36,998 nt of DNA from a virus: IMG/VR virus record IMGVR_UViG_3300043219_000413. One strand, written 5' to 3'. The translations under genes were made by a program, and so were the position numbers. This document shows, piece after piece, positions 15,509 to 29,097 of the stretch; the first letter of the stretch is position 1, and every line of letters begins with the position of its first letter. The notes below the pieces were generated by a model. The model saw only the letters and a program-made list of their open reading frames with translations. It searched no databases and was not told the origin of the DNA.

Positions 15509-16411
15509 CTAAATTGAGTTTTTAAAAAAGAGCGTCTCCCTATTTACGCCATCAATCTCAGGGAATGGTTGACCTGAGCGCCACCTTATCGATCCAATCG
15601 TTACCTCATTGTAGTAAGCGTTCCATGTATTAATTAAGTAAGCTAATGCGTAACGTTTATCTAAAAGAACTTGTTGAGAGCGATACTTTATCATTATTGT
15701 TCTAAACGCGAGTATGGGGTCTTTTTTGCTTAAACCCTCGCCATGTTCTACTTTGTTGAAAAAATCAAAACATTTTTCTGGGTCTATGTGTTGAGTTACA
15801 TATATAAAGAAAGCGCCAATACTGGGTTGAAGAACATGTCGCATATGTTCGGCATTCACAACTAGATCTTGCATTCTGGGCCAGCGTTTCAGTCCTTCCA
15901 GGATGTCTTCAGGACATAACTCCGATGTCCAACGCAGATACTCATCCCTCTCATACGTCAATAGCCAGCGTACGGCGGCTGAAAGGACGTGGACATTCTT
16001 ATATCCTGCCATTTTTAATATGTCGCCCGCTGACCTGGCTCGTCCCGTATCAATCGTTTTGAAATGATCAGGACTTAATCCTAGTGCCAAAGAAACATTA
16101 ACTGGCTTGTCGGCTGACGCAATTGCGTTCAGTCTATGCTGTCCATCGAGCAAGACAAAAAGACCATCCACCTGTCCCACTTTTATTGTTTCACCGTTTA
16201 ATACCCATCGCCCTATATTCATTAATCTTCGATATTTGTTTATAAGGCTTTTATTCAGATGACGATTATTTTCATTTCCTTGGAGTAATTTTTTCGCACC
16301 TTCCTGTGATAATTCTACATTCATAAACTCAACGACAGGTTCTTTCTCTTTCGCAATACGATCTATTGCTTTCTCCCAATCTGTCTTTTGTTTTTTTCTT
16401 ACGGCTACCAT
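15509..16411 (-). CDS. ParB/Srx-fold (DGQHR motif) protein, 300 aa
   Basis: VLLDGQHRLNAI motif preceded by NR.L....I..Y...M..G.W. GAGGAG RBS upstream. Confidence 0.6.
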   Translation of the reverse strand: MVAVRKKQKTDWEKAIDRIAKEKEPVVEFMNVELSQEGAKKLLQGNENNRHLNKSLINKYRRLMNIGRWVLNGETIKVGQVDGLFVLLDGQHRLNAIASADKPVNVSLALGLSPDHFKTIDTGRARSAGDILKMAGYKNVHVLSAAVRWLLTYERDEYLRWTSELCPEDILEGLKRWPRMQDLVVNAEHMRHVLQPSIGAFFIYVTQHIDPEKCFDFFNKVEHGEGLSKKDPILAFRTIMIKYRSQQVLLDKRYALAYLINTWNAYYNEVTIGSIRWRSGQPFPEIDGVNRETLFFKNSI

Positions 16412-16451
16412 CTTGGACTCCTCAAAGAGTATAAGTATTATTGACGCCTCG

Positions 16452-16499
16452 ATAGTAAGCCTAGCTTAAGTTTAATTCAAGAACTTTAGCTACACTTAA
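16452..16499 (-). promoter_or_regulatory. Candidate promoter of the ParB-like operon (TTGAAT-17-TACTAT) with two TTAAG-N5-CTTAA-type operators
   Basis: On the minus strand, -35 is at 16475-16480 and -10 at 16452-16457. Operator-like sites are 16455-16469 (gtaagcctagcttaa) and 16485-16499 (tttagctacacttaa), each 1 mismatch from the palindrome. Confidence 0.45.
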
Positions 16500-16544
16500 T
16501 TTTTGTGAGATGAAGGGTTTTTGGGCGTATGTTCAAGATAGTTA

Positions 16545-16607
16545 ATGTGCGACAAAGGAATGAGTGTGATAAATGTGTGAAAAAGTGTGCGAAAAAGTGT
16601 GTAGTTG
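16545..16607. repeat. Array of GTGTG / TGTGCGA / TGTGTAGTTG motifs (candidate integrase arm-type sites, P arm)
   Basis: atgtgcga at 16545. gtgtg at about 10-12 bp phasing (16564, 16575, 16585, 16597). gtgtgcga at 16585. tgtgtagttg at 16598. Confidence 0.45.
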
Positions 16608-16683
16608 CCTACGGTTTTGAAGAGTAATCGCGAGATCCGTAGAAACCTCGCTTTCCTTGAGAGGTCGCTACGACGCGGTAATA

Positions 16684-16734
16684 TGGCTCCCCGACCTGGA
16701 CTCGAACCAGGGACAGACGGATTAACAGACCGTT
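16684..16734 (-). other. attP core: 3' half of a tRNA-Asn(GUU) gene (anticodon loop, T-arm, acceptor 3' strand, CCA); not a complete tRNA
   Basis: Reverse complement reads aacggtCTGTTAAtccgtctgtCCCTGGTTCGAGTCCAGGtcggggaGCCA. This parallels E. coli tRNA-Asn ...GGACUGUUAAUCCGUAUGUCACUGGUUCGAGUCCAGUCAGAGGAGCCA. No D-arm or 5' acceptor strand lies upstream. Confidence 0.75.
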
Positions 16735-16767
16735 AGAAACATCGCTGTGGCGGCCTCTTAGCAACTT

Positions 16768-16790
16768 ATGTGCGAGTTTCTGTGTAGTTG
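16768..16790. repeat. Second copies of atgtgcga and tgtgtagttg on the other side of the att core (P' arm candidates)
   Basis: atgtgcga at 16768-16775 and tgtgtagttg at 16781-16790 repeat 16545-16552 and 16598-16607 in direct orientation. Confidence 0.45.
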
Positions 16791-16858
16791 ATGGCCGGAG
16801 AGGCCCGTCTCATGGGGTCTTGTGCTTTCCTGGTTGGCGCTTTATTTTCTGCTCAGGC

Positions 16859-16885
16859 ACAAAAAAACGGGAACTAGCCCCGTTT
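16859..16885 (-). terminator. Terminator downstream of int
   Basis: On the minus strand: aaacggg-gctagtt-cccgttt followed by a T-run (A7 on the plus strand at 16861-16867). Confidence 0.6.
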
Positions 16886-16907
16886 CTTCGCTTAAGTCAT
16901 GCTTTAG

Positions 16908-17951
16908 TCAACTAACGATGCGTAGGTCTGGTTTTGGCTGTTGAGGTATCGTTCTCTCTGGCATTGAATCGCGCAGATCATCCGTGTGCAATGTCATGTA
17001 ACGGCGCACCATAACATCTGTTGAGTGTCCCATTAAACGCATAATCTTGTACTGGGGGACTCCCGCTTTCGCCATGAGAGTACCGAAAGTGTGGCGTAAA
17101 TCATGAAATGTACAATGCAGTAACTTACATTTTTTCCTGGCATGTAAAAAATCTTCCTTAATCTTACTTGCGGAGCACTGCAATGGGATGTTGTCTTTTA
17201 TGAATATAACCTGCTCGTCACTCAGCGGGATTACTCGCAATTTTTTTCCTTTACCATCAATATGTAAATCGTTGTTGTGTAGAGATTTACTATTGAGTCG
17301 CCATAGTTCAGCTGATCGCAACCCAGTATAAGCGGTAAATATAATTAACTCACTAGTTAGCTTTAACTTACAATTTTCAGCCAGCATTTCAACTTCGCCT
17401 ATTTCTATGTAGGTATCGCGCTCGCTGGCTTTTTCATCCAGTCGAACAATCTTTTTGCTCGCTGGCTCCGCAAGCCAACGGTAAGCGCTGGAATGAGCCA
17501 AGGTGGCAATGCCGCTTAATATGGCTGTTTTCTTGTTGATGGTAGAGTTTTTAAATCTGAGGATAAACTCTCCGCTGTCTTTGTTTAGCTTGAGTTCTTC
17601 CTGCATATCTAACACCATCTGGTTGGTTGCGTCATAGATCTGGGATAGAGGTCTGCTCAGATCGATGAACTTACGAATAGTATTGATGTGGGTGTTGTAT
17701 TTTTCAGGCTGCGACAATGTAGGCTGCTTTCTCCGCATCCACAATATCAAACCATCTTGGATTGTTCTATGTGTCTGGATACCATTTACTTTGTCTTTTA
17801 ACTCTTCTCTTTTTTCCAGGTAAGCCGCATAGGCTAAGTTCTCCTGCCCGACCTTGTAGCCAGTAGTTGATCTAATATTTTCTCCTTCGTGCGAAAAGTT
17901 GAAATAGAGTGTATTTCCTCTGGCCCTAATTGGCTGTTTTGCTTTTGACAT
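16908..17951 (-). CDS. int: Tyrosine integrase (347 aa)
   Basis: LRSAELWRL (Arg), HDLRHTFGT (HxxR) and GHSTDVMVRRYMTL (His...Tyr) catalytic signature. Adjacent to the tRNA-fragment attP. Confidence 0.9.
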   Translation of the reverse strand: MSKAKQPIRARGNTLYFNFSHEGENIRSTTGYKVGQENLAYAAYLEKREELKDKVNGIQTHRTIQDGLILWMRRKQPTLSQPEKYNTHINTIRKFIDLSRPLSQIYDATNQMVLDMQEELKLNKDSGEFILRFKNSTINKKTAILSGIATLAHSSAYRWLAEPASKKIVRLDEKASERDTYIEIGEVEMLAENCKLKLTSELIIFTAYTGLRSAELWRLNSKSLHNNDLHIDGKGKKLRVIPLSDEQVIFIKDNIPLQCSASKIKEDFLHARKKCKLLHCTFHDLRHTFGTLMAKAGVPQYKIMRLMGHSTDVMVRRYMTLHTDDLRDSMPERTIPQQPKPDLRIVS

Positions 17952-18139
17952 GACGTTTGCCCTCTTTGTCTTAGTTTTTCAATATAGTCAGTTAGATCGT
18001 CTGGGTGTATTCGATCCGAACGTGACGTCGTAGCTAATCTCACGACATTTAGATCACCGTTAATAACAGCGCGTCTTAATGTTTTTTCTGAGCAACCGAG
18101 ATATTCGGCGGCTTCAGCGAACGTTTTTAGAAATGCCAT
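17834..18139 (-). CDS. xis: Excisionase-type (MerR-like winged HTH) DNA-binding protein (101 aa)
   Basis: FAEAAEYLGCSEKTLRRAVINGDLNVVRL....RIHPDDLTDYI is typical of the excisionase-family HTH. Lies immediately upstream of int and overlaps its first 118 nt in another frame. Confidence 0.6.
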   Translation of the reverse strand: MAFLKTFAEAAEYLGCSEKTLRRAVINGDLNVVRLATTSRSDRIHPDDLTDYIEKLRQRGQTSCQKQNSQLGPEEIHSISTFRTKEKILDQLLATRSGRRT

Positions 18140-18263
18140 AATTTAACCTGTATTAAGTGTAACTTAATATTTGCTGTTTATAAACGGACTGGAGTTTATA
18201 TTTAGTGCTCATTCGACGGACGGCCTATGGTTCATTTAATGTTGCTGCTTTTTTGATCAGCTG

Positions 18264-19028
18264 TTATGTCGTCATTTTCATTAATAACTGTCTTGCCGCT
18301 ATCTGATGCTCATTACTGAGTCGCTGCCATACAATGGCTTTTCCTGCTTCTCCTAGCTCCTCGGCAGCTTCCAGTAATCCGCCGCTGTCGTCGACTTCGA
18401 TGCAAGTCATAAATAACGCTTCATATCGGTTGATCATTTCAGCGCCTTTGTGCTCCAGCTTTTTAACAAGCTCTTTCATCTTCACTTTTTGTCCCTTAGC
18501 AAATGAGCCATTCAGTGCGATCATTGCATTTAAGGGGATACGCTGAAAGAAAACATACATACCCAATGCATCATCATCGTCAATTAACTGCGTAAAGTGT
18601 TCATGCTGCTCGTCAGTAAAGTCGGGTGCATTTATTGGAAGATCCTCGCCCTGGAAAACAAACAAACCCAGCCCATGCATTGCAATTGCCTTTACCATTG
18701 CCCGCTGAATACTGGTATTTATTTCAAATGTTGTAGGTGTTGAGACAGGCCCATTTGTGTAATCAAGGACGGGATGAATCTGTGTCCTGACAACACCGTT
18801 AATGATGATGGACACTTCAACAAAGTAACCCAGAGGTGTCTCAAGATAAGGGACTTCATACTCAGGCTGAGAAAGAAGTGGAAAGTGCTTAACCTGTATG
18901 ACGGCCTCCGGGTGATATTGACCTAATGCTTCTAATGCAAAAGGCCACGATAAATAGCTATAACTCCCCTTCTGTTTAAGATGTGGGCTGATATCAACTT
19001 CAGACAATATCTGAAAATAATTTTTCAT
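18264..19028 (-). CDS. Single-strand annealing protein, DUF1071 / Sak3-like (254 aa)
   Basis: KGSYSYLSWPFALEAL..YHPEA and QRAMVKAIAMHGLGLFVFQGEDLP are hallmark blocks of this family. GGAGG RBS. Confidence 0.65.
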   Translation of the reverse strand: MKNYFQILSEVDISPHLKQKGSYSYLSWPFALEALGQYHPEAVIQVKHFPLLSQPEYEVPYLETPLGYFVEVSIIINGVVRTQIHPVLDYTNGPVSTPTTFEINTSIQRAMVKAIAMHGLGLFVFQGEDLPINAPDFTDEQHEHFTQLIDDDDALGMYVFFQRIPLNAMIALNGSFAKGQKVKMKELVKKLEHKGAEMINRYEALFMTCIEVDDSGGLLEAAEELGEAGKAIVWQRLSNEHQIAARQLLMKMTT

Positions 19029-19315
19029 GTTAATTTTTCCTCCGCCAGTTCATCAGCCAGCTCAGTGAGATATAAACTGATGAGTTCCAGTGTTATCTCC
19101 CCTAGCAATGATGCGCTGTTGTTGTTGTAACAGTATCTGATGATAGCTGCGTAATCATTTGATTCAGCCAGGGAGTCGGCAAGTGCCTCCTGGATCGATG
19201 AAGGATCTGTCCATAGGTCATTAAATATTTCTACTGATAGTTGACTTAAGTGCTCATTGAATTGGTCTTTCATGTCCTGGTAACCGTGATAGTAGTTGTA
19301 CTCGCTTTTATCCAT
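19025..19315 (-). CDS. Hypothetical acidic protein (96 aa), first gene of the leftward early operon
   Basis: ATGA-type overlap with the downstream gene. Candidate promoter directly upstream. Confidence 0.55.
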   Translation of the reverse strand: MDKSEYNYYHGYQDMKDQFNEHLSQLSVEIFNDLWTDPSSIQEALADSLAESNDYAAIIRYCYNNNSASLLGEITLELISLYLTELADELAEEKLT

Positions 19316-19322
19316 GACCAGT

Positions 19323-19362
19323 AAGATAAACTTGTCTTAATGCAAACTCAAGCATTACTTAA
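19323..19362 (-). promoter_or_regulatory. Candidate leftward early promoter (TTGAGT-17-TATCTT) with overlapping operator-like site
   Basis: On the minus strand, -35 is at 19346-19351 and -10 at 19323-19328. The -10 ends 7 nt before the ATG (19315). tcaagcattacttaa (19348-19362) is 1 mismatch from TTAAG-N5-CTTAA and overlaps the -35. Confidence 0.45.
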
Positions 19363-19534
19363 GTTTTTGTTATCAGAGAATTGTCGGTAGCAGAGAAGAA
19401 TTAGGATGAAACGGATTAGAATTGGAGTTGAAACGTTTCCTTTTTTTTTACTGATAGAGAGAAGATTAGGGACGGAAACAATAATCCCTAATTCTTTATT
19501 TGATTGTTGTTTTTATTGACTATATTTCTTTTTT

Positions 19535-20005
19535 TTACTTCTTTTTGTTGTTTTTTTTAATTGTCATCGGCATTGCTTCCTCTAGCCCTACATATTTCAT
19601 CAGCTGAATGTCACTGAGTGACTGGTCTATGGCAAGCCCTGAATAGAGAGTGTATAAGGCCTTGAAAAGGTTGGCTTTTCTTGTCAAGTTGCTTTCATCA
19701 AAAAAATTGGTTAAACCTTCTGTTTGAGTCAGTGTGGTAAATACTCGCGTCAGTAATCGGGAACTTAATTCTTCTCCTGCTTCAGGCCCAATGTCTATAT
19801 TCGTCGACTCCATTAAATGTTCAATTGTTGTGCCAAATAATTTCGCTATATTTAATACAGTCTCAAGTTCCGGCGTCGTTGGATTCTTTATTGATTCCCA
19901 TTGTGAAACAGCTGCATTACTTACCTTGCAAGCACGCGCAAGCTGGTCTTGAGTCATCTTCTTTCGTTTTCTGAATCCTTTGATATTGATAGCTAATAGC
20001 GTCAT
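19535..20005 (-). CDS. CI-like repressor, XRE-family HTH, no S24 peptidase domain (156 aa)
   Basis: MTQDQLARACKVSNAAVSQWE HTH. Divergent from the Cro-like gene. No Ser/Lys autocleavage-type C-terminal domain is visible. Confidence 0.75.
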   Translation of the reverse strand: MTLLAINIKGFRKRKKMTQDQLARACKVSNAAVSQWESIKNPTTPELETVLNIAKLFGTTIEHLMESTNIDIGPEAGEELSSRLLTRVFTTLTQTEGLTNFFDESNLTRKANLFKALYTLYSGLAIDQSLSDIQLMKYVGLEEAMPMTIKKNNKKK

Positions 20006-20049
20006 GTCGTTCCTTATGATGGCTTGTTATGGCTTATTAGTCGCCCATC

Positions 20050-20064
20050 TTAAGTGCTTCTTAA
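20050..20064. promoter_or_regulatory. Perfect TTAAG-N5-CTTAA palindrome in the cI/cro intergenic region
   Basis: ttaagtgcttcttaa, 45 nt upstream of the CI start codon. Confidence 0.5.
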
Positions 20065-20147
20065 CTTTTCCGCAAGAGGATAGGGAATCGAGACGCTTGT
20101 CTTTGCTGGTTTTTTCTTTTTTTTGTTAAATCGACTGAAATAGGGTG

Positions 20148-20176
20148 TTGATATAAACTATAGCCAGTCTTAATAT
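20148..20176 (+). promoter_or_regulatory. Candidate rightward early promoter TTGATA-17-TAATAT
   Basis: Near-consensus hexamers with a 17-nt spacer. The -10 ends 7 nt before the ATG at 20184 and no SD lies between. A degenerate operator-like site, tatagccagtcttaa, is at 20159-20173. Confidence 0.55.
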
Positions 20177-20183
20177 ATGCCTC

Positions 20184-20384
20184 ATGACTAAAGCACCACT
20201 TGACCTAATACTCGAATTCACCACAGAGGCCAATATCGCCAGGTACTTCAACATCACTCCAGCCGCAGTTAATCAGTGGCGGAAAAATGGTATCCCAGCT
20301 GAACGCATTATTGGTCTTGAAAAACTGGTTAAGCGGCAGGTCTCTCGTTATGAAATAAACCCAAAACTATATCCGAAGGAGTAA
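20184..20384 (+). CDS. Cro-like small HTH protein (66 aa)
   Basis: ANIARYFNITPAAVNQWRKNGIPAERI is typical of the Cro/YdaS-type HTH. Divergent from the CI-like gene. Confidence 0.7.
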   Translation: MTKAPLDLILEFTTEANIARYFNITPAAVNQWRKNGIPAERIIGLEKLVKRQVSRYEINPKLYPKE

Positions 20385-20386
20385 CT

Positions 20387-21118
20387 GTGTCTAATTCCTG
20401 GTTCCGTCTTTATCACGAGTTTACGACTAACACAAAGGTTCAGCGATTGAGTGAGGCTGATCAGCGCCGTTATCTTTTTACGTTGGCAGCGCGTTGTCGT
20501 TTAGGCGATAAGCCGTATGTCGACGAAGATGCTTCGTTTGAGCTGCGCATTAGCGATGAAGATTGGTTGGTATCAAAAGCCACTTTGATCAAGGCTAATT
20601 TGATTAACGATTTTAACTACCCAACTGGCTGGGATGAACGCCAATATGTCTCTGATTCCAGTACGGCTCGCGTTGCCAAACACCGGAGGAAAAAAAAGCA
20701 ACAGGATGCCGTTGCTGTAACGCCCCCAGATACAGATACAGATACAGATACAGATACAGATACAGATACAAATACAGATGTAACTTCGTGTAAAAAAAAA
20801 CTAGAGAATAAGCACGAAAAAAAAAGTGGTTCAGTGCCTTACAAAAAAATAATCGAACTTTATCATCGGTTGTTGCCTGAGCTGCCTGCTGTTGTGAAGT
20901 TGACACAAAGAAGAAAATCACAGATACATCAGCGATTTAAGGAAGACCTGGATAGCCTGGAGAAATGGGAAAATTTTTTTGCATTTGTTCAGCAGTCGGA
21001 TTTTTTAATGGGGCGTGTTGATCCACCCAGTGGTCGAACCTTATTTCGAGCCGATATCGAATGGCTGACTAATGCAACGAATTTTACAAAGATAGCGGAG
21101 GATAAATATCATATTTGA
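20387..21118 (+). CDS. Replication-initiation / primosome-loading-like protein with a (DT)7 linker (243 aa), GTG start
   Basis: AAGGAG lies 5 nt upstream of the GTG. The N-terminal domain resembles the DUF1376/YdaU type. The C-terminal block W.NFF..V..S.FL.G.......F.ADIEWL is common in phage replication proteins. Position right after cro. Confidence 0.5.
   Translation: MSNSWFRLYHEFTTNTKVQRLSEADQRRYLFTLAARCRLGDKPYVDEDASFELRISDEDWLVSKATLIKANLINDFNYPTGWDERQYVSDSSTARVAKHRRKKKQQDAVAVTPPDTDTDTDTDTDTDTNTDVTSCKKKLENKHEKKSGSVPYKKIIELYHRLLPELPAVVKLTQRRKSQIHQRFKEDLDSLEKWENFFAFVQQSDFLMGRVDPPSGRTLFRADIEWLTNATNFTKIAEDKYHI
20729..20776. repeat. Hexanucleotide microsatellite (GATACA)7 plus one AATACA unit
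   Basis: Read directly. Encodes DTDTDTDTDTDTDTNT inside the replication gene. Confidence 0.95.
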
Positions 21119-21164
21119 AGCACCTAAAAAGGTTAATCGTAATCACTTAAGAGAAACACCAACA

Positions 21165-21326
21165 TTGGTTAAGCGTTGTGGCGTTGAAGGTTGCAATCGA
21201 CTCATGGTTGTTTACATGAAGGAGCATGATATTTCCCGGTGTGCTGTCTGTTATCAGCGTGATATTGACAGGGCTGGCAAGTCAGCCAATCAACTAAGCG
21301 CGCAAGGTTTTGATGTGAGCGATTGA
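21165..21326 (+). CDS. Possible small Cys4 zinc-ribbon protein (53 aa from TTG 21165, or 40 aa from ATG 21204)
   Basis: RCGVEGC ... SRCAVCYQ gives CxxxxC...CxxC. Below the ORF-track cutoff. Start unclear and no good RBS. Confidence 0.3.
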   Translation: MVKRCGVEGCNRLMVVYMKEHDISRCAVCYQRDIDRAGKSANQLSAQGFDVSD

Positions 21327-21403
21327 TATCTGAGGTTTTTGTAATAACTGGAGGTTGTTTGTTTTTTTAATCAATTAACTTAAAGATCAAGAGGGCATTA
21401 ATA

Positions 21404-21676
21404 ATGCGGGAATTAAAAATAATAACTGCAACTCACGACGGAATATTGAAGTCGTTAACTGTACCAGAGTGGTCACCAATTTTGGACGTATCAAAAAAGG
21501 AACTCTATAACCGAAAGACGATTGGATTATCTGATCAGGATACGGTTGATGGGGTATATAAAAAAGACAGGAAAAGAACAAAAATAAACGAGGAAGAACT
21601 GGCAGAAAAATACAGAGAATTTAATTTTAGTCATGGCATTGTTAAGTTGTGGAGGCAGAAAAATGGCATACGATAA
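21404..21676 (+). CDS. Hypothetical protein (90 aa)
   Basis: AAGAGGGCA RBS lies 6 nt upstream of the ATG. Confidence 0.55.
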   Translation: MRELKIITATHDGILKSLTVPEWSPILDVSKKELYNRKTIGLSDQDTVDGVYKKDRKRTKINEEELAEKYREFNFSHGIVKLWRQKNGIR

Positions 21677-21932
21677 TACTAACCGGGGGGCAATGTGGCT
21701 CAACAATGATAGAGCGAGTGAGAGACATCCAGACTTTAAAGGATCACTCAATGTTGATGGCCTGGAGTACTGGGTCTCTGGTTGGGAGCGAAAAGCGAGC
21801 GCTAATCCAGCTGCGCCAGCAATTACTTTTACGATTGAATCAAAACAAAAAGACAGGGTGCTACACCGAGAGGATAAGCGGGAGCCGCCCACGCCAGCTG
21901 ATTATAGTTTCGATGATGATCTGCCGTTTTAA
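21663..21932 (+). CDS. Small SSB-like protein carrying an SSB C-terminal tip (…SFDDDLPF), 89 aa
   Basis: GGAGG lies 7 nt upstream of ATG 21663. The C-terminus DDDLPF mirrors the E. coli SSB tip DDDIPF. N-terminal block NTNRGAMWLNNDRASERHPDFKGSLNVDGLEYWVSGWERK. Confidence 0.6.
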   Translation: MAYDNTNRGAMWLNNDRASERHPDFKGSLNVDGLEYWVSGWERKASANPAAPAITFTIESKQKDRVLHREDKREPPTPADYSFDDDLPF

Positions 21933-21944
21933 CTATCATTAACG

Positions 21945-22235
21945 TTGAGACTAAGGTCAAGAACTGACAAAAACCAGGGAGAGATTGTAAAAGTCTTTCG
22001 CTCTTTAGGTTGCAGTGTTCAACATCTTCATACTATCGGGAGAGGGTGCCCTGATATCCTGATTGGGTATAGGGGCATTAATTTGCTGGTAGAAATAAAA
22101 GATGGATCACGTAGACCCAGCGCTAAAAGGTTAACTGTGGACGAACAGGGATGGCACGATAGCTGGTTGGGGCAAGTATGCATAGTTGATAATACTGACA
22201 GTGCAATTGCGTTGATTAGAAAAGTAGATATTTAA
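21945..22235 (+). CDS. PD-(D/E)xK nuclease, VRR-NUC-like (96 aa), TTG start
   Basis: GCPDILIG ... LLVEIKDG ... LTVDEQGW fits the PD...E.K nuclease core seen in VRR-NUC phage proteins. Confidence 0.5.
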   Translation: MRLRSRTDKNQGEIVKVFRSLGCSVQHLHTIGRGCPDILIGYRGINLLVEIKDGSRRPSAKRLTVDEQGWHDSWLGQVCIVDNTDSAIALIRKVDI

Positions 22236-22299
22236 AATAACTTAGCTAGATTTGACATATCTTTATCGATTTAGTTTTGACCAATAGGTGGATCATTAA

Positions 22300-22638
22300 T
22301 TGACTTACAACCCGAACGAAATCTATCATGCGTTGTTAGTTTCAGGAGAGGATTATGCTGATAAAAAGGCCGCTTATCTGCTTTTGGATAGCATGACAAA
22401 ACCCCAATTATCTGGTGCTTTTTATCGCACCATGGGGCAAAGTGCGACAGAGAAAAGAGAGCTAATGTTTCGCGACGATCTGTATGTTAAGCATCTGCAT
22501 GTTGTTGCTGACGCCCGTCATGCCTATCTCTTATCGGACATTAAATACAAGTCGATGCAAGCCTTGGCGGACGCCAAACGCACAGAGGCAAGCACTCGAC
22601 GGGCCGAGGCTAAGTATGTAAGTATGCAGCCATCATGA
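22300..22638 (+). CDS. Hypothetical protein (112 aa), TTG start
   Basis: ORF with a GGTGG RBS-like element upstream. No recognisable motif. Confidence 0.45.
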   Translation: MTYNPNEIYHALLVSGEDYADKKAAYLLLDSMTKPQLSGAFYRTMGQSATEKRELMFRDDLYVKHLHVVADARHAYLLSDIKYKSMQALADAKRTEASTRRAEAKYVSMQPS

Positions 22639-22827
22639 TCCCCTCCTTTTTCTCTTTAAGTACCTTTTAAGTTCATAATAATCATATCGGATCGCTTTTT
22701 TACCGATCTTGATATACGGTATTTCTCCCTTATTCATTCTATCTTTTGCTAACATCGATACGGATATTCCAAGCATGTCGGCGGCCTCTTTTGTGGTGAG
22801 TAATCTTCTCTCTTTTTTATTTCTCAA
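22633..22827 (-). CDS. Small excisionase/MerR-type HTH protein (64 aa) on the opposite strand within the rightward operon
   Basis: LLTTKEAADMLGISVSMLAKDRMNKGEIPYIKIGKKAIRYDYYELKRYL matches the HTH_17/excisionase-family pattern. Confidence 0.6.
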   Translation of the reverse strand: MRNKKERRLLTTKEAADMLGISVSMLAKDRMNKGEIPYIKIGKKAIRYDYYELKRYLKRKRRGS

Positions 22828-23136
22828 TTGTTTGCCCCTCGTTATTTTTTTATCTTTTTTTTTGTCTTCTAATCATTATTTATGGTTGATGTCGGTACTT
22901 TATGATTGATCTGCTGTCATCTTTATTCCTGTCGTTCCCGGCTTCAGCTTTTATTTGATGTCTATGTGTCTTTATTAAAAAATAGTCTTAAGCAGTACTA
23001 TACATTATGTCTATTAGTTTTTGGTATTATAGTTATGGCTTGCTATTGGCATTGATGGGGCTTTCGGTGAAACATCTAACCTCATCGGGTTTCTGTCAGC
23101 GTTTCTTTTTTGTTTCTTTTGTTACCAGGGGGACTC

Positions 23137-23436
23137 ATGCTCAAAACACCACCATTTCGATCCAGGACATATCTCGATTACATTTCACGCTTGCCTTGTT
23201 GTGTTACTGGCCGCGAGGGAGACCGCAACGATCCGCATCATATAAAAGGGCGGGGGTATGGCGGCAGCGAAAAATGCTCTGATCTTTTTTGTATTCCAAT
23301 AAGTCATGAACTGCATCAGGAATTGCACCAGATAGGCTGGAAAAGCTTTGAAGAGAAATACAATGTATGCCAGATTCTTGTTGTTTTGAAGACAATTCAA
23401 AAGGCTTTTGCTGAGGGGGTTTTAAGTGAATCCTGA
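23137..23436 (+). CDS. DUF968 / Ref-like HNH-family protein (99 aa; ORF is open from 23110)
   Basis: YLDYISRLPCCVTG.....DPHHIKGRGYGGSEKCSDLFCIPISHELHQELH matches the DUF968 pattern. AGGGGGA RBS precedes ATG 23137. Confidence 0.55.
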   Translation: MLKTPPFRSRTYLDYISRLPCCVTGREGDRNDPHHIKGRGYGGSEKCSDLFCIPISHELHQELHQIGWKSFEEKYNVCQILVVLKTIQKAFAEGVLSES

Positions 23437-23971
23437 ACTTTTGCGGCTACTTAATCCGAAAACAGCCCGGCTGGATGGGGTAAATAGAGGTTTGCCGATG
23501 ATAACGACGGATGATATTAATTCTGCATGTGCAGGCGCTGATCAGATCGGTTTGGATCTGCTTTTGTCTAAAGTCTGTGACGACCGGGCAGCTCAACACA
23601 GGGCTTTTTATAGTCTGTATCAGGAAGTCGTTCAATTAGCTGTCGATAAACACTGGAAAATAAGGGAAAAAGGACAAGAGAAGATCCGCAGTTTAACGCA
23701 ATTGATTCTCTTTGAACTGACTGCTGCGCCTCGCTGCCCTAAATGCAATGGAACTAAATTTAATAAGCGATTGAGGCCTTGTCGATCTTGCAATGGCACC
23801 GGTTTTTATAAGATAAGAGATGCTCAGCGCGCCAGAGCATTAGGGATAAACTCCAGCACCTGGAACAGAGTCTGGGCTTATCGTTACGCTGAGGTATTGT
23901 CGTTAATTTTGAATCATGAGACTAATGCGCTTAAGAGTATTGGTCAAAAACTAAAGCGTGACTTGAGTTAA
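23426..23971 (+). CDS. Q: Late-gene antiterminator Q-like protein (181 aa), GTG start
   Basis: Zinc finger CPKCNGT-x10-CRSCNGTG followed by ARALGINSSTWNRVWAYRY..L...E..A, as in lambdoid Q proteins. Last gene of the rightward early operon. Confidence 0.6.
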   Translation: MNPELLRLLNPKTARLDGVNRGLPMITTDDINSACAGADQIGLDLLLSKVCDDRAAQHRAFYSLYQEVVQLAVDKHWKIREKGQEKIRSLTQLILFELTAAPRCPKCNGTKFNKRLRPCRSCNGTGFYKIRDAQRARALGINSSTWNRVWAYRYAEVLSLILNHETNALKSIGQKLKRDLS

Positions 23972-24046
23972 CGCAAAGATAAGCGTACATTGGTCATAAG
24001 AATAGGGATTCTATACCTCTCTTTTTTTTAGATCCCTGTGAATATT

Positions 24047-24075
24047 AGCCCGCAAGTTAATGCGGGCTTTTTTTA
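24047..24075 (+). terminator. Strong rho-independent terminator 76 nt downstream of Q
   Basis: agcccgca-agttaa-tgcgggct followed by T8. Confidence 0.8.
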
Positions 24076-24273
24076 TGATTTTTTTTGCATTGGGCGTAGT
24101 AAGCACTTTAAAAAGCTTATTTCTCTATCAGGCATAGGTCTAAATGACACGTTACTTGTGGGTTTTAGCCAACTATCCAGGGTATTTTCGGGCAATTCCA
24201 TGATGATAGCTGTTTTTTTTCTGGTTAAACCGTAGTCTTTCATTAGTTGCCGAAGTGTTTCAGGGTTACTCAT
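24073..24273 (-). CDS. Small HTH protein (66 aa), last gene of the opposite-strand island
   Basis: LTRKKTAIIMELPENTLDSWL HTH-like segment. AGGA RBS. The 12-bp palindrome gtcttgcaagac (24365-24376) lies upstream. The overlapping plus-strand ORF 24038-24235 was rejected. Confidence 0.5.
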   Translation of the reverse strand: MSNPETLRQLMKDYGLTRKKTAIIMELPENTLDSWLKPTSNVSFRPMPDREISFLKCLLRPMQKKS

Positions 24274-24471
24274 TCTCGATTCCTTTAAATCGTTGATATG
24301 TAATACGCTTTGTAAGTGGATTAGCTGTATTCTACTTCAGGTCATAATGTGTCACAATACACAGGTCTTGCAAGACAGCCCGCCTTTCTGAGTTTGCCCT
24401 CTTAAGGTGGGTTTTTTTTTGCCTGCCAAGTAAGACGCTGATGATTAAAACAGCTAACTATCAGCGCGTTA

Positions 24472-25095
24472 CTAACTGGAAAAGACATGGCCATCAACAA
24501 ACGCATAATCCATGAATAATTCATAAGTGAACTGTTTCCAGTCGAAATATTTGCTTGTGTCCATACCACATCCGTCGGCGTAGTTTTCGGCAAATGACTC
24601 CTCGCTGTCATGCTCCCCCTGGTAGCAGTCTTCAAAATCTGACTGAGTAGCATATTCCTGGCCGCGATTAGATACATAAGCCGTCCAGGCGTCGCCGTGT
24701 TCCGCCAGTTGTTCGGCTAACTCGGAGACTACCTGAAGGCTTGTATATTCGCCTACGTCGATTCCATTGGTGTCGTGAATCGCAAACTCTTCCGCCGTGA
24801 CGGTTTGTCGCAGATTGTCAGAGTCGCACCCAGGACAAGTTTGTTTAGCAGGATTGTCCCAGCCGTTAATGTCTGACAGTAGACGCCCGTGCAAAACAGA
24901 AACGGTTGCATAATGTTCTATATGTCCGCAATTGTTACACACAGTACAGGGGATGTTTGATTCTGGTGATTCAAGTAACAGGTTATAAACTTCGTTATTT
25001 AACTCTTCCAGGGTTTGGTTCGCGTCGATCCACTTGCCGCGTAAAAAACCTGCATTGTATGCCGCTAAGTCTGCAATATAAATTTGAGTTTCCAT
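24472..25095 (-). CDS. ardA: ArdA-family anti-restriction protein with a Cys4 insertion (207 aa)
   Basis: METQIYIADLAAYNAGFLRGKWID, AEEFAIHDTNG..VGEYTS and the acidic C-terminal half parallel Tn916 ArdA (MQVYIANLGKYNEGELVGAWF, YEEYAIHDYE..VDEYTS). An extra segment carries CTVCNNC...CPGC. Confidence 0.75.
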   Translation of the reverse strand: METQIYIADLAAYNAGFLRGKWIDANQTLEELNNEVYNLLLESPESNIPCTVCNNCGHIEHYATVSVLHGRLLSDINGWDNPAKQTCPGCDSDNLRQTVTAEEFAIHDTNGIDVGEYTSLQVVSELAEQLAEHGDAWTAYVSNRGQEYATQSDFEDCYQGEHDSEESFAENYADGCGMDTSKYFDWKQFTYELFMDYAFVDGHVFSS

Positions 25096-25173
25096 AGTCG
25101 TTTGCCCTCTTTATGGTGCCTGGCAGTATTGCCATCAAAACCGGCTACAAGGTAACCGGCTTTAATTGCTACA

Positions 25174-25650
25174 CTAATCCGCGTACTCGTTAATGGTGTA
25201 ACCCATAGTCAAAGCGGCTTCTGTTAAAGCCTGTAAGTAATTAGTGTCACTGGAATAGTTGCCAGAAAAACAAGTATTACGCGGTACAATTCGACGCAAG
25301 ACTTCAAGTCTAAAATTATTAGATGTCGCCAGCATTGATTTTTTAAGTGGATAAAACAAAAGCTCACTTGTCTTTAATTGATCAACATAAAAAGCGGCCT
25401 GGATCTGTATGGTATTTTCTGGACTATTACCGCTAGAGACACGGTTAGTTTTTTGACCATAGTATTTACTGGCTGTCTTTAATTGCTTAAGAAAATAATT
25501 AAGCCTTTCAATACCGGTTTTTATTTTATAGTTACCCTGGCGTCCATTATCTAATTCAAAGGGGATGTTTAAAAAATCAGGTAAACTATTTTTACCCCCT
25601 AGTGTGTTGATGTGATTTTTTACTGTTAGCTCAGTTATTAATGTGTTCAT
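25174..25650 (-). CDS. Hypothetical protein (158 aa) in the anti-restriction operon
   Basis: ORF between ardC and ardA on the same strand. No recognisable motif. Confidence 0.55.
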   Translation of the reverse strand: MNTLITELTVKNHINTLGGKNSLPDFLNIPFELDNGRQGNYKIKTGIERLNYFLKQLKTASKYYGQKTNRVSSGNSPENTIQIQAAFYVDQLKTSELLFYPLKKSMLATSNNFRLEVLRRIVPRNTCFSGNYSSDTNYLQALTEAALTMGYTINEYAD

Positions 25651-25660
25651 GACTTATGCC

Positions 25661-25912
25661 TTAATATGATTGACGCGTTAGAAGAGCGGATAAGTTTTCA
25701 AGCTTTTCTAGCTCAATGGCTTCTATTGGTGTTAATTCATCGAAGCCAATAGGATCAACCGCTTCAAAGTAGGACTGGCACAAAAGCAGATCAATATCGA
25801 TTACTTGATCATCATTAACCAGGGTGATTTTGTCGCCGTGCATACTCTGAGCGGTTCCGGTGATCTGTGAGCCATCATTTAAAATGGCGGTCATGAGTTT
25901 AGAATGTTGCAT
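25661..25912 (-). CDS. Hypothetical small acidic protein (83 aa from ATG 25912; ORF is open to 25945)
   Basis: The conserved AGAGGGCAAAC element lies 3 nt upstream of ATG 25912, which argues for this start. Confidence 0.5.
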   Translation of the reverse strand: MQHSKLMTAILNDGSQITGTAQSMHGDKITLVNDDQVIDIDLLLCQSYFEAVDPIGFDELTPIEAIELEKLENLSALLTRQSY

Positions 25913-25982
25913 AAAGTTTGCCCTCTTTACTGGCTTAATTGCCACATAAACCCCCTTAACAAAACAGGGGCTTAAATTGCTA

Positions 25983-26840
25983 TTAAGCAGCGGCTTTCAG
26001 TTCAATGGTTTTGTGTTTGCCCTGGATGTAATCAGCGGCTCTTTGTGCTTTCGATGCGGCCTGGATGATTAACTTACTGTCTTGCCTTAATCGCTGAGAC
26101 CAGCTCTTGATATATGCGGCGCTATTATCAATTGTGGTTTGCTCTATCCCAGCAACACCGCAAAGCATCGCCGCGCTGAATTCGGCGACTAATTCTTCTT
26201 TGCTGTATTCGTGACTGCCAAAATGCGCATTGTTACTGGTTAAGGTCTCCCGGTTCAGTCGATTAATATGGCCGGTACTGTGTGACAGTTCATGAAACAG
26301 CGTTGAATAATAACCAGCGTCATTGATGAACAACTCAGGGGCTGGTATTTCGATTCGATCCTGGCTCGGCGAGTAAAACGCTTGCGGCCCATTCTTAATG
26401 CCTGGTTTGTCAGCAAACCCTTTAACTAGATTCTCACAAGTTTCTATAGGGGAATGAGTCCGGCTCGATTCTGTTTTTTGCCAGTCGATGCCCTCTGTTT
26501 GTTCAAGGTTAAATACCGTGTAATAACGAAGGATAGGAATATTTTTATCTTCACCTGTATTTCTATCTTTATAAGGTGACATCTTAAAAAAGATAATCAT
26601 TTGACCTTTTTCGCCCTTTTTAACATTACCTTTTAATTGTTTCGCTTGCTTGTAAGTTACCCAGTGCGGGCACGAATAACCGGCGCTATTTAATAGAAAA
26701 GGATTAATACCGGTGTACGCTTTTTTACTGACAAAATTTTGGATCTCGCCAGAGTTAACCCACGGTTTACGCCAGGGGATAACACCAGCTTTTAGTTGAT
26801 CAAGAATTTGATTGGTAATGATCTCGTATACTTTACTCAT
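25983..26840 (-). CDS. ardC: ArdC-like anti-restriction protein: ssDNA-binding N-domain plus HExxH metalloprotease domain (285 aa)
   Basis: ILDQLKAGVIPWRKPW...YTGINPFLL (ArdC N-domain) and YYSTLFHELSHSTGH..RLNR...EELVAEFSAAMLC (zincin domain). Confidence 0.8.
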   Translation of the reverse strand: MSKVYEIITNQILDQLKAGVIPWRKPWVNSGEIQNFVSKKAYTGINPFLLNSAGYSCPHWVTYKQAKQLKGNVKKGEKGQMIIFFKMSPYKDRNTGEDKNIPILRYYTVFNLEQTEGIDWQKTESSRTHSPIETCENLVKGFADKPGIKNGPQAFYSPSQDRIEIPAPELFINDAGYYSTLFHELSHSTGHINRLNRETLTSNNAHFGSHEYSKEELVAEFSAAMLCGVAGIEQTTIDNSAAYIKSWSQRLRQDSKLIIQAASKAQRAADYIQGKHKTIELKAAA

Positions 26841-26909
26841 AAGTTTGCCCTCTTATTGATATTGATTTTGCTTGAATTCACTTACTAAATAAATTCGAAG
26901 CCTGGTTAA

Positions 26910-27101
26910 TTAAAATTCGTATGTCACGCCTTTGTGCTCAATACACGGGCAAGCTTCTTGCTCTATATGCTCAAGTAATTCATCAAAAGCATATTCCGTG
27001 TCATATCCGCATTTAGTCATTAAAGAGCGAACAAACTCTTCTGATAATTCGGTTTGTTTTGTGCTTGTTTTGGTGTGTATATAACATTTTAAAGTTTTCA
27101 T
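26910..27101 (-). CDS. Small acidic protein (63 aa from ATG 27101; ORF is open to 27131), first gene of the island operon
   Basis: An AGAGGGCAAA element lies 2 nt upstream of ATG 27101. A promoter lies directly upstream. Confidence 0.5.
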   Translation of the reverse strand: MKTLKCYIHTKTSTKQTELSEEFVRSLMTKCGYDTEYAFDELLEHIEQEACPCIEHKGVTYEF

Positions 27102-27123
27102 AATTTGCCCTCTATGGTTATAA

Positions 27124-27151
27124 ATTATCATAGGTACTCAGTACCTGTCAA
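27124..27151 (-). promoter_or_regulatory. Strong sigma70-type promoter of the anti-restriction operon: TTGACA-16-GATAAT, with palindromic operator in the spacer
   Basis: On the minus strand, -35 TTGACA is at 27146-27151 and -10 GATAAT at 27124-27129. Palindrome aggtac-tca-gtacct is at 27132-27146. Confidence 0.65.
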
Positions 27152-27176
27152 CAATAAAGATATAATACGGTATAAA
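27148..27176 (+). promoter_or_regulatory. Candidate promoter for terS (TCAACA-17-TATAAA), back-to-back with the island promoter
   Basis: The -10 ends 7 nt before ATG 27184. No SD is present. A second -10-like TATAAT lies at 27161-27166. Confidence 0.35.
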
Positions 27177-27183
27177 AATATAC

Positions 27184-27666
27184 ATGAACGATAAAACAGC
27201 GCCAGGTAAGCAAGCCGTCGAATTGACGGAAAACACTATAGATAAAGGGATTAGACTAAAACCGGAAGAGATTGACGAGCGATACATTAACGCTTATTTA
27301 GAGCATCCTGAAAGAAGTAAAACATTTGCTTTGATCGCCGCAGGTCATCCTAATCCTACAGCGCAGCGCGCCTATCAAATACACGAGCGCCTACTGAGTC
27401 AAATAGATAAGGGCTTAGATAAACTTATCTTGCAAGATGCTGCATTAGGTCGATCTGTTTTAGTTGACCTGGCACTTAATAGTGACAGTGACGCGGTAAG
27501 AGGATCAAGCGCCAGCAAATTAATGGAGTACGCCGGAAAACAAAAACCCGACCGCCTTATTGTGGAGAGTCGAGAGCCGGAAGATATAGACGCCGAGATT
27601 GCTGCAATACAAAAACGCATACTTATCGCGCAAGGTGAAGAGGTGCCAGATAGTGAGCTGCATTAA
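27184..27666 (+). CDS. terS: Terminase small subunit (160 aa)
   Basis: YINAYLEHPERSKTFALIAAGHPNPTAQRAYQIHERL and VLVDLALNSDSDAVRGSSASKLMEYAG resemble Terminase_2-type small subunits. First gene of the late/structural direction. Confidence 0.6.
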   Translation: MNDKTAPGKQAVELTENTIDKGIRLKPEEIDERYINAYLEHPERSKTFALIAAGHPNPTAQRAYQIHERLLSQIDKGLDKLILQDAALGRSVLVDLALNSDSDAVRGSSASKLMEYAGKQKPDRLIVESREPEDIDAEIAAIQKRILIAQGEEVPDSELH

Positions 27667-27707
27667 TAAGAAGGAAAGAACATTACTACCAGGAAGAGCT
27701 TAAAACG

Positions 27708-27740
27708 TTAGTTAACGTTTAGTTGACGTCTAGTTGACGT
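27708..27740. repeat. Three tandem 11-bp repeats (T/C)TAGTT(A/G)ACGT
   Basis: ttagttaacgt / ttagttgacgt / ctagttgacgt, read directly, 42 nt after the terS stop. Confidence 0.9.
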
Positions 27741-28130
27741 TAATTGAAATGTAGAGCGTCACCCTGAATGACTATCTTTGTTACTCACTCACACATCTTT
27801 TTTCTACCAGGTGACGGGGTACTGATAAAAGCCTGGGCATTAACCAAAACAATGGTCAGATTTATCAACAAACAAACAAACATCAGCTATTTATCGAGCC
27901 TTTTACACAAAAAACAACACATAAAGCGCTGATAGCCTTCTATAGCGGCATTTAAAACGGATTGATAGTCCGTTTGATGCCCTGCAACCGGGGGCCGCGT
28001 GGGTTTCTCGCGCGGCGCGATGGGCGTCGACATAGCTCGTTCTATCATTTCGGGGAAATTAGGCAAATAAGAAATCCTTGTTTTTCAACAGCTTAATTCC
28101 CATCCTCTACTACAGATATCCCGGTGCTAT

Positions 28131-28502
28131 ATGAACAATCGACTGCACAACGCTACAAACGGATATCAGGGAAAGGCTAAACGGGTGCTGTGTATATGCA
28201 GTGCCGGACTCTTGAGAAGCCCCACCGCCGCAAACGTGTTTCACAGGGAGTTTGGGTTTAATACCCGCGCCGCTGGGTTGGAGTCGAGCTTCGCTTTGAT
28301 ACCGGTTGATGATGTTTTATTGCACTGGGCCGATGAGATTGTGTGCATGGAGGCATACCAGAAAGAGGCGTTAGAAAAGCGCACAGACACACCGATCATT
28401 AATCTGGGTATTCAAGACAGCTTTGAGTATATGGATGAAACGTTACAGACAACGATAAAAGAGCGGTATTTGAACGGGAAAAAGAAAACAGCAAAACAGT
28501 AA
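28131..28502 (+). CDS. Low-molecular-weight phosphotyrosine phosphatase / ArsC-fold-like protein (123 aa)
   Basis: RVLCICSAGLLRSPTAANVF matches the LMW-PTP P-loop CX5R(S) (compare LFVCLGNICRSPMAE). No clear SD. Confidence 0.55.
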   Translation: MNNRLHNATNGYQGKAKRVLCICSAGLLRSPTAANVFHREFGFNTRAAGLESSFALIPVDDVLLHWADEIVCMEAYQKEALEKRTDTPIINLGIQDSFEYMDETLQTTIKERYLNGKKKTAKQ

Positions 28503-28585
28503 CTTAACTAATCCCTTACAGCAATACCGTTATCTGTTTGGGTCAACGTTATCGCGAGTTACTTTGGTTTTGCAGGATTTTCTGA

Positions 28586-28614
28586 TTGATATGCTGTTAA
28601 GCATAACTTAACAT
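28586..28614 (+). promoter_or_regulatory. Candidate moron promoter TTGATA-17-TAACAT with a perfect TTAAG-N5-CTTAA palindrome in the spacer
   Basis: -35 at 28586-28591, -10 at 28609-28614, palindrome ttaagcataacttaa at 28597-28611. Confidence 0.5.
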
Positions 28615-28642: not shown

Positions 28643-28996
28643 ATGCTGAGATCTAAAAATAGACGAGAAGAAAACCGTAATTATTTTCACTATGGTGTGA
28701 TGACATCTCAACTGTATGACCTCTCTTTTGCTCAGGAGCAGGTTATGAAGATAGTGAAACGCCTCAGAGCCAAACCGAACAGGAGCGTCGTGGATATACT
28801 GGATGCGTATGACCAGATCGATATCTTGATGTTTGAGCCGAGGAACAATGTAACGATCCATAAGAGTTACGAGGAGATAATGCAAACGTTTGACTATGTT
28901 TATCCTCGATTAACGCGCCGAAATCGCCGACACAAGGTATACACCACGCGCCAGTGTTTGAATTTTCTGTCACCGATATGGACATCATTTAGTTAA
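28643..28996 (+). CDS. Hypothetical basic protein (117 aa)
   Basis: AAGAGG RBS lies 8 nt upstream. Promoter upstream and terminator downstream. Antisense ORFs 28628-28885 and 28764-28988 were rejected. Confidence 0.5.
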   Translation: MLRSKNRREENRNYFHYGVMTSQLYDLSFAQEQVMKIVKRLRAKPNRSVVDILDAYDQIDILMFEPRNNVTIHKSYEEIMQTFDYVYPRLTRRNRRHKVYTTRQCLNFLSPIWTSFS

Positions 28997-29097
28997 CCTG
29001 TAAAGGCGCAACGACACTTCGGCTGCCTGTTTAAGTTATCTAGACAGGTGGCGCTCGCGCAAAAAAAAAGAAAAAAACCAGTTCGCCATTCGACAGG

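Follow-up and report, generated by a model that had tools for sequence, protein, structure and literature searches.

A conserved TTAAG-N5-CTTAA palindrome as the predicted operator of a CI/Cro immunity switch in an uncultured temperate phage

One of the questions raised by the virus record IMGVR_UViG_3300043219_000413 of IMG/VR (one strand of 36,998 nucleotides, referred to below as the window) is why a 15-bp palindrome, TTAAG-N5-CTTAA, should recur ahead of so many of its genes, and which protein might read it. A first-pass annotation, made from the letters of the window, had proposed that the palindrome marks a phage-wide operator regulon under one dimeric DNA-binding protein, either the CI-like or Cro-like protein or one of several small helix-turn-helix (HTH) proteins. 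The TTAAG-N5-CTTAA repeat is real, nonrandom and spacer-specific, and the case for it as a regulatory motif rests on its conservation in related loci and its match to the operator of phage P22. It is probably, though with room for doubt, the operator of the phage's own immunity switch, read by the CI-like repressor (CI) and, most likely, by the Cro-like protein (Cro).

Counts, controls and conservation of the palindrome

Perfect copies of the palindrome start at 18153, 20050 and 28597, that is, three where 0.13 would be expected, and a count of at least three was reached in none of 100 dinucleotide shuffles. With one mismatch allowed there are eight copies against 2.24 expected (eight was again reached in 0/100 shuffles), the additional five being those at 16455 and 16485, which lie 30 bp apart, at 19348, at 16892-16906 and at 22656-22670. 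The coordinates and sequences that had been given for all copies listed earlier, including the three perfect copies and the one-mismatch copies at 16455, 16485 and 19348, are correct; the list of six missed the copies at 16892-16906 and 22656-22670, and a weight matrix, described below, finds 11 sites, with additions after int, over cro codons 2-7, ahead of the ATG at 23007 and at the late promoter. In a spacer series from N0 to N12, inverted perfect copies occur at N5 only, and no perfect N4 copy was found in the window or in its relatives. All eight matches with at most one mismatch fall in the approximately 15% of the genome outside a crude map of open reading frames (ORFs).

The argument that such a palindrome is expected well under once in 37 kb was made post hoc. 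A look-elsewhere control over 1024 half-sites and 13 spacers showed that 75% of shuffles give some palindrome of this 5-Nx-5 form with at least three copies, and the rarity argument was thus overstated. The window itself holds another non-homopolymer palindrome in three copies, AACAG-N12-CTGTT, all of whose copies lie within structural genes and which may be taken as a chance comparator. It could be argued from the same 75% that an AT-rich palindrome has simply clustered by chance in AT-rich intergenic DNA; the spacer specificity, the non-coding location, the conservation in 15 relatives and a gap in matrix scores all stand against this view, which the comparative data effectively refute and to which we attach next to no probability.

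The comparison drew on 15 syntenic loci derived from metagenomes, in which CI identity ranges from 38 to 99%. They were obtained from ten metagenome homologues of CI (56-99% identity), from viral contigs (down to 38%) and from homologues of a protein of 96 amino acids (aa), which gave four more; they are designated below by L numbers. Every one of these loci repeats the motif at the same relative positions, namely before the repressor gene cI, at the cro promoter (P_cro), at the leftward early promoter (P_L), before the excisionase gene xis, as a pair ahead of a 300-aa gene and before a 117-aa gene. The half-sites, with the adjacent promoter hexamers, are invariant islands at orthologous positions, and the central 5 bp and the flanks diverge.

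A weight matrix trained on the relatives only, with the window and the 99%-identical L011 left out, gave 11 matches of at least 12 bits in the window; simple base-order shuffles averaged 0.55 and never exceeded 4. The 11 sites start at 16455, 16485, 16892, 18153, 19348, 20050, 20159, 20189, 22988, 23952 and 28597, and the scores in the window show a gap between 13.8 and 7.7 bits. Since the last 127 nucleotides (36872-36998) repeat nucleotides 1-127, the window closes into a circle of about 36.9 kb, a complete genome, and the census of sites is genome-wide. The predicted operators are confined to 16.4-28.6 kb, the early third of the genome, and the structural module is without sites. To describe the regulon as phage-wide thus goes too far.

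Predicted operators at the switch and at other promoters

The immunity switch consists of the divergent cI and cro genes with the following features, in which operators and promoters are predicted.

19535-20005, minus strand: CI-like repressor, 156 aa, HTH_3
20050-20064: O(cI), perfect copy, in P_cI (spacer and -10)
TTGCGG 20075-20070, 17 bp, TAAGAT 20052-20047, minus strand: putative cI promoter, P_cI
20110-20128: long T/A tract upstream of the cro -35
20148-20176, plus strand: P_cro, TTGATA-17-TAATAT
20159-20173: O(cro), TATAG-N5-CTTAA, two mismatches, in the spacer and -10 of P_cro, 15.5 bits
20184-20384, plus strand: Cro-like protein, 66 aa, YdaS/P22_Cro-type
20189-20203: O3 candidate, TAAAG-N5-CTTGA, over cro codons 2-7 and 30 bp from O(cro), 13.8 bits

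O(cI) is perfect in nearly all relatives (with one mismatch in L044) and lies 41-52 bp ahead of the cI ATG; in the alignment of this region (A1) the TTAAG and CTTAAGAT columns are invariant. The ortholog of O(cro) appears in most relatives as TTAAG-N5-CTAWA, with one or two mismatches. The distance between the centres of O(cI) and O(cro) is 109±1 bp in the main family, in spite of the divergence of the intervening sequence, a constancy that a constraint of looping or phasing, or else an UP element, could explain. The O3 candidate was found in 15 of 16 loci, and in nearly all of them it lies 30-31 bp from O(cro).

The remaining candidates, again with predicted promoters, lie on both sides of the switch.

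16455-16469: O(300)-proximal, one mismatch, in the spacer and -10 of P_300, 19.6 bits
TTGAAT 16480-16475, 17 bp, TACTAT 16457-16452, minus strand: P_300, promoter of the 300-aa gene with a DGQHR motif and of two AlpA-like genes
16485-16499: O(300)-distal, one mismatch, 30 bp upstream of the proximal site, 20.5 bits
16892-16906: int-stop site, one mismatch, immediately past the stop codon of the integrase gene int (16908-16910), with the int terminator following, 16.4 bits
18153-18167: O(xis), perfect copy, 14 bp ahead of the xis start (18139, minus strand), its centre forming a -10-like TACACT
TTGAGT 19351-19346, 17 bp, TATCTT 19328-19323, minus strand: P_L, promoter of the 96-aa gene and the Sak-like annealing protein
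19348-19362: O(L), one mismatch, overlapping the -35 of P_L, 26 bits, the top score
22656-22670: copy with one mismatch between convergent gene ends, 5.9 bits
22988-23002: site B, TTAAG-N5-CTATA, two mismatches, 4 nucleotides before the ATG at 23007, 16.3 bits
23952-23966: O(R') candidate, TAAAG-N5-CTTGA, two mismatches, within the closing codons of the Q-like gene, overlapping the late-promoter -35, 20.1 bits
28586-28614, plus strand: P_117, TTGATA-17-TAACAT, promoter of the 117-aa gene
28597-28611: O(117), perfect copy, in the spacer and -10 of P_117

The promoters that had been quoted at 28586-28614 and 20148-20176 were both found by a promoter scan, and the TTGAAT-17-TACTAT promoter (16452-16480, minus strand) can be read in the sequence. 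O(L), as AAAACTTAAG-N5-CTTGAGTTT, is an invariant island amid diverged intergenic sequence and takes the form TTAAG-N5-CTTGA in 16 of 16 loci. P_L shows one clear site plus overlapping weak registers offset by 11 bp. Weak half-sites at such 11-bp offsets, sharing CTTAAG or CTCAAG hexamers, can be seen at 19326-19373 and 16455-16480, and in L002 two one-mismatch sites (10656 and 10667) overlap at the same offset; such overlaps may offer a choice of binding registers, or form arrays along one face of the helix. O(xis) is kept in the relatives as TTAAG-NTAYA-CTTAA preceding the xis ATG. O(300)-proximal lies within a conserved alignment block, and the 30-bp pair of sites at P_300 is kept in L001, L003, L004, L044 and L072. 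At the 117-aa gene, the site, the promoter and the gene are all kept in L001 and L002.

Relatives show the int-stop site as TAAAG-N5-CTTAA, and L073 has a perfect copy (at 9681). No evident promoter accompanies the site, which might act as a roadblock or as a looping partner. The O(R') candidate was found in all eight loci that cover the region, including L045, and its layout, AAACTAAAG-N5-CTTGAGTTA, resembles that of P_L, AAACTTAAG-N5-CTTGAGTTT. The late promoter itself, TTGAGT-17-TACATT (23963-23991), is conserved, with a terminator about 60 nucleotides on, an arrangement typical of a Q-dependent late control region; the operator candidate is less certain because coding and promoter constraints overlap at 23952-23966. 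Site B was likewise found in eight of eight loci covering its region, upstream of the DUF968 and Q-like genes, and is a candidate internal rightward promoter-operator. The copy at 22656-22670 is probably due to chance, as its score is low and it is kept only in the 99%-identical L011.

It might be argued that only the sites of the immunity region and of P_L are true CI/Cro operators, and that the distal copies (those at xis, the 300-aa gene, the 117-aa gene, the end of int, site B and the late promoter) are conserved for other reasons, so that there is no extended regulon. The right half-site does overlap -10-like hexamers (TAAGAT, TAATAT, TAACAT and TACTAT, in which CTTAA-NAT doubles as the -10), the sites at 20189 and 23952 fall within coding sequence, and copies with two mismatches occur at chance frequency. 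However, the left half, TTAAG, is no sigma-70 element, yet its conservation at the distal sites is just as strong. Of the three perfect copies, two (18153 and 28597) are themselves distal, and the 30-bp pair at P_300 parallels that at P_cro. Moreover, the position of the site with respect to the -35 and -10 varies from promoter to promoter, which implies that the motif is not one promoter element. On balance we regard this restricted version as unlikely.

The candidate readers and how they might act

CI has an N-terminal HTH of the Cro/C1 type (Pfam HTH_3 at 3e-10) with the recognition helix V-S-N-A-A-V-S-Q-W-E-S, followed by a linker and a C-terminal domain. Its best match in the PDB is the P22 c2 repressor (E 3e-4; 32% identity over about 65 residues), in which VSNVAISQWE aligns with VSNAAVSQWE of CI. 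In the AlphaFold model the N-terminal domain (predicted local distance difference test, pLDDT, 76-90) superposes in Foldseek on 2r1j/3jxb with a root-mean-square deviation (rmsd) of 1.6-2.3 Å and 32% identity. The C-terminal domain (pLDDT 50-71) is modelled, at low confidence, as all-helical; Foldseek matches beyond the HTH (rmsd >10 Å) were uninformative, and the Pfam search gave no Peptidase_S24 match. The lack of an S24 match together with the helical model suggests that RecA-stimulated self-cleavage is unlikely and that induction probably proceeds by another route. Cro carries the recognition helix I-T-P-A-A-V-N-Q-W, matches Pfam YdaS_toxin (5e-13) and P22_Cro (7e-6), and has a weak PDB match to P22 Cro (1rzs), with ITPAAVNQW aligned to ISDAAVSQW. 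The helix of CI is invariant in 10 homologues of 54-99% identity and that of Cro is conserved in all relatives, and both, the CI helix as V-S-x-A-A-V-S-Q-W-E-S, are invariant wherever the motif is kept.

The resemblance to P22 extends across the two proteins, as the P22 Cro helix, ISDAAVSQWK, may also be set beside VSNAAVSQWE of CI, and P22 Cro uses the same operators as P22 c2. The P22 operator has TTAAG half-sites in the consensus ATTTAAGATATCTTAAAT (PMC5175364), and in ATTTAAG-ATAT-CTTAAAT the 4-bp centre is not contacted (PMC5175364, PMC4267663). With CI and Cro helices so close to those of P22 c2 and Cro, TTAAG is exactly the half-site to be expected, here spaced 1 bp wider.

The association between helix and half-site can also be followed outside the family. 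Unrelated viral and genomic loci were fetched by the peptide patterns KMTQDQLA or AAVSQWES and scored for TTAAG-N4 or -N5-CTTAA in the 400 bp upstream of the repressor match, one mismatch being allowed. The palindrome was present in eight of 23 lineages with the AAVSQWE helix and in none of 20 lineages with other helices (Fisher p = 0.003). Each positive lineage uses a single spacing, several have sites both upstream and downstream of the repressor gene, and perfect N5 copies occur in contigs of 65-66% G+C content (GC). Together with conservation and the helices themselves, this independent association supports the proposal that one dimeric HTH protein of the phage, CI-like and/or Cro-like, acts on a common operator. 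As a separate observation, unrelated phage contigs with AAVSQWE-helix repressors fall by spacing into N5 (L053, L054, L056 and L063) and N4 (L064, L051 and L055); as judged by eye, N5 occurs with S24-type and with other C-terminal domains, and the spacing class does not track the type of that domain.

The same data bear on two other possible readers. Several small HTH genes are present in the phage, and three sites (16455, 16485 and 16892) flank attP, where recombination directionality factors act, and a small HTH protein had been among the suggested binders; the excisionase or another protein of the HTH_17/AlpA type would be such a candidate. This suggestion found no support. In unrelated contigs it is the AAVSQWE helix that the motif accompanies, the cI, cro and P_L promoters have the strongest of the conserved sites, and MerR/AlpA-type excisionases are not known to be linked to TTAAG palindromes, so that a binder of this kind appears very improbable. 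Alternatively, the sites might belong to a global regulator of the host, by which the phage would sense the state of the cell, as such regulators typically place one motif on many promoters. Against this stands the occurrence of the same half-site beside AAVSQWE repressors in contigs whose GC runs from 43% to 66%, a spread that implies widely differing hosts, and the fact that both switch proteins of the phage carry a helix known from P22 to read TTAAG. Nor do the sites resemble an SOS regulon, as the LexA box CTGT-N8-ACAG has one match in the window, at 10388 inside a gene, which is the chance rate. A host regulator is thus a reading to which we give very little weight.

A number of points nevertheless weigh against assigning the palindrome to CI and Cro. 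The count of perfect copies by itself fails the look-elsewhere test, and with up to two mismatches there are 33 copies against 27.8 expected, which is not significant. The shuffle control that had been called for was therefore passed by the perfect and one-mismatch copies and failed at two mismatches, so that the O(cro) copy at 20159 is indefensible by counting and is supported only by its conservation in relatives. The two-mismatch sites at 20189, 23952 and 22988 overlap coding or promoter constraints, and at the O3 candidate the constraint on the Cro N-terminus cannot be separated from that on an operator. The cI promoter has the strongest palindrome and the cro promoter the weakest, which would be unusual if CI were the main reader. 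The centre measures 5 bp here, compared with 4 bp in the 18-bp P22 operator, and the key Val33 of P22 c2 aligns with an Ala in CI (P22 Cro also has Ala there). Finally, no heteroimmune relative was found, as every relative keeps both helix and motif. The protein is therefore linked to the site by co-occurrence and homology, and not by covariation.

That last point reflects a series of searches. CI alone gave no relatives in a scan of viral contigs, and only distant Gram-positive HTH matches by tblastn against phage records; a scan of genome contigs with the CI alignment returned only unrelated HTH proteins and hence offered no hint as to the host. Heteroimmune relatives sought through the 300-aa protein, alone and as an alignment, in viral contigs gave none, and those sought through the 96-aa alignment in metagenome contigs gave one locus, which was already known. 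The four new syntenic loci reached from 96-aa homologues all keep the same helix and motif.

The direct observations concern the sites and how well they are conserved, the promoter-like hexamers that they overlap and the homology of the two proteins, and they point to a simple scheme for the CI/Cro operator. Dimers of CI, and most likely of Cro, would place a P22-type helix (xAAVxQW) into each TTAAG half-site. A bound dimer would cover the spacer and -10 at P_cI (TAAGAT), P_cro (TAATAT), P_300 (TACTAT) and P_117 (TAACAT), the -35 at P_L and at the late promoter (TTGAGT), and the -10 plus start site at P_xis, where TACACT lies inside the operator centre; since core promoter elements are thus covered, RNA polymerase should be kept off. 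The lysogenic state would see CI shut down xis-int, cro and replication together with the leftward recombination operon, the operon next to attP and the 117-aa gene, probably the late and Q promoters as well, and limit its own synthesis at O(cI). Cro would act at the same sites during lytic growth; like lambda Cro at OR3, it could plausibly turn off cI from the perfect copy at O(cI). The 30-bp pairs at P_cro and P_300 suggest cooperative binding of two dimers. That bound protein represses, that dimers cooperate, which of the proteins binds and how CI and Cro share the work are all steps that we infer.

A more far-reaching version may be put forward tentatively, as a possibility we consider less probable than its negation. 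According to this version one CI/Cro pair, on a P22-type operator one base wider, would directly gate almost every transcription unit except the anti-restriction block, including xis-int, the attP-proximal operon, an internal pre-Q promoter and the Q-dependent late promoter. The 30-bp pairs and the 109-bp distance would then point to higher-order repressor assemblies, and TTAAG-N5-CTTAA would represent a widespread, undescribed spacing class of AAVSQWE-helix repressors, occurring with S24 C-terminal domains as well as with others and standing beside the classical N4 class of P22.

The surrounding genome and comparison with known systems

The genes around the switch are those of a temperate phage with a P22-type portal. 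Its terminase large subunit (29491-30978) has at most 43% identity to that of any cultured phage, and megablast of 16000-21000 against phage records gave no match.

14988-15224, 15246-15479, 17834-18139 and 22633-22827: HTH_17/AlpA-type small proteins
16861-16885: int terminator
16908-17951, minus strand: integrase
17834-18139, minus strand: excisionase xis, with HTH_17 and excisionase PHROGs matches
18264-19028, minus strand: Sak-type annealing protein
19025-19315, minus strand: 96-aa gene
20387-21118, plus strand: O-like replication protein
23426-23971: Q-like antiterminator, phrog_127
24047-24068: strong terminator after the Q-like gene
24472-25095, minus strand: ArdA-like gene
25983-26840, minus strand: ArdC-like gene
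28643-28996: 117-aa gene, conserved, with a terminator-like hairpin (29096-29122) downstream

Two gene labels that had been proposed earlier could not be confirmed. The 300-aa protein had been called ParB-like; it matches only phrog_5931, of unknown function, has no Pfam, NCBIfam or PDB match, and gave a single-sequence structure prediction with a pLDDT of 37, so that the label rests solely on a DGQHR motif recognized by eye. The gene at 28131-28502 had been called terS; it shows, again by eye, a CxCSAGLLRS signature like that of a low-molecular-weight phosphatase or ArsC, and a conserved 160-aa gene at 27184-27666, itself without a family match, is a better terS candidate. The 117-aa protein has no family or structure match, and the 74-aa gene at 29158-29382 appears by eye to encode a signal peptide.

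The anti-restriction block (24472-27151, minus strand) has a near-consensus promoter, TTGACA-16-GATAAT, at 27151-27124, and, being without a high-scoring TTAAG-type operator, appears to lie outside the regulon. The late control region (23426-24068) is lambdoid in layout, with the Q-like gene, the TTGAGT-17-TACATT promoter at 23963-23991 and the terminator, and this layout is kept in relatives as far as L045, with the terminator hairpin absent in L001. Read by eye, the minus strand at about 16684-16735, in the interval separating int from the 300-aa gene, carries the 3' half of a tRNA-Asn(GTT)-like sequence. This half is the probable attP core; L001, L003 and L005 have it too, and L004 has a different sequence there. 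Near attP, AAAAAGTGTG occurs three times at 16560-16600, and these repeats may be candidate integrase arm sites. Two start codons, that of the gene opening the leftward operon (ATG at 19315, minus strand) and the ATG at 23007, lie about 7 nucleotides past a -10-like hexamer and are without a Shine-Dalgarno sequence (19313-19328 and 22998-23009), and are candidates for leaderless mRNAs. The long ORF that starts at 23007 is not conserved in relatives.

This returns us to the question of how the predicted switch stands among those already described. The closest parallel is that of P22 c2/Cro (PDB 2R1J, 1ADR and 1RZS), with which it shares divergent cI and cro genes, an HTH of the Cro/C1 type, operators over both promoters, inverted TTAAG half-sites and nearly the same helix (SNAAVSQWE here, SNVAISQWE in c2 and SDAAVSQWK in P22 Cro). 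The repressor here, however, lacks the S24 autoprotease and has a predicted helical C-terminal domain, there are no triple adjacent operators at OR/OL, the P_cI site lies 109 bp from the 30-bp P_cro pair, and extra operators are predicted at xis, at accessory genes and at the late promoter. With neither the 4-bp centre nor the S24 domain nor the triple operators, the system is a relative, and not a member, of the P22 immunity type.

The likeness to lambda CI/Cro is one of organization: two proteins predicted to act on shared operators, an OR3-like site on the repressor promoter, paired sites on a lytic promoter, and a Q-type antiterminator with a late promoter and a terminator downstream. The half-site sequence differs, and candidate operators occur here on the late promoter and on P_xis, whereas in lambda PR' is without a CI operator and int is not directly controlled by CI. 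A palindromic-site regulon is also known from phiC31 of Streptomyces, in which conserved inverted repeats for the repressor are found at many dispersed early promoters; the repressor family, the motif and the promoter type are unrelated to those described here. In the part of the literature on Cluster A mycobacteriophages drawn on here, stoperators are asymmetric, monomer-bound and genome-wide, and stop elongation (PMC9283540). To the extent of that source, the two systems are alike in that one immunity repressor has many sites beyond the switch, and unlike in that the sites here are palindromic, lie on promoters and occur in the early third only, and are hence not stoperators as described there.

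Repressor operators on the early promoters of phages are textbook biology and the concept is not new; moderate interest attaches to the N5 spacing class, for which string searches of the literature returned no papers, and to the candidate operators that xis-int and the late promoter carry. The analysis provides a regulatory map for a complete uncultured temperate phage with a P22-type portal, comprising 11 predicted sites, two candidate binders and seven predicted promoters, six of which have operators. It also offers a natural comparison of the same helix and half-site at 4-bp and 5-bp spacing, which bears on indirect readout as discussed for P22 and 434. If the direct sites on xis-int and on the late promoter are real, they would amount to a more 'hard-wired' lock on lysogeny than that of lambda.

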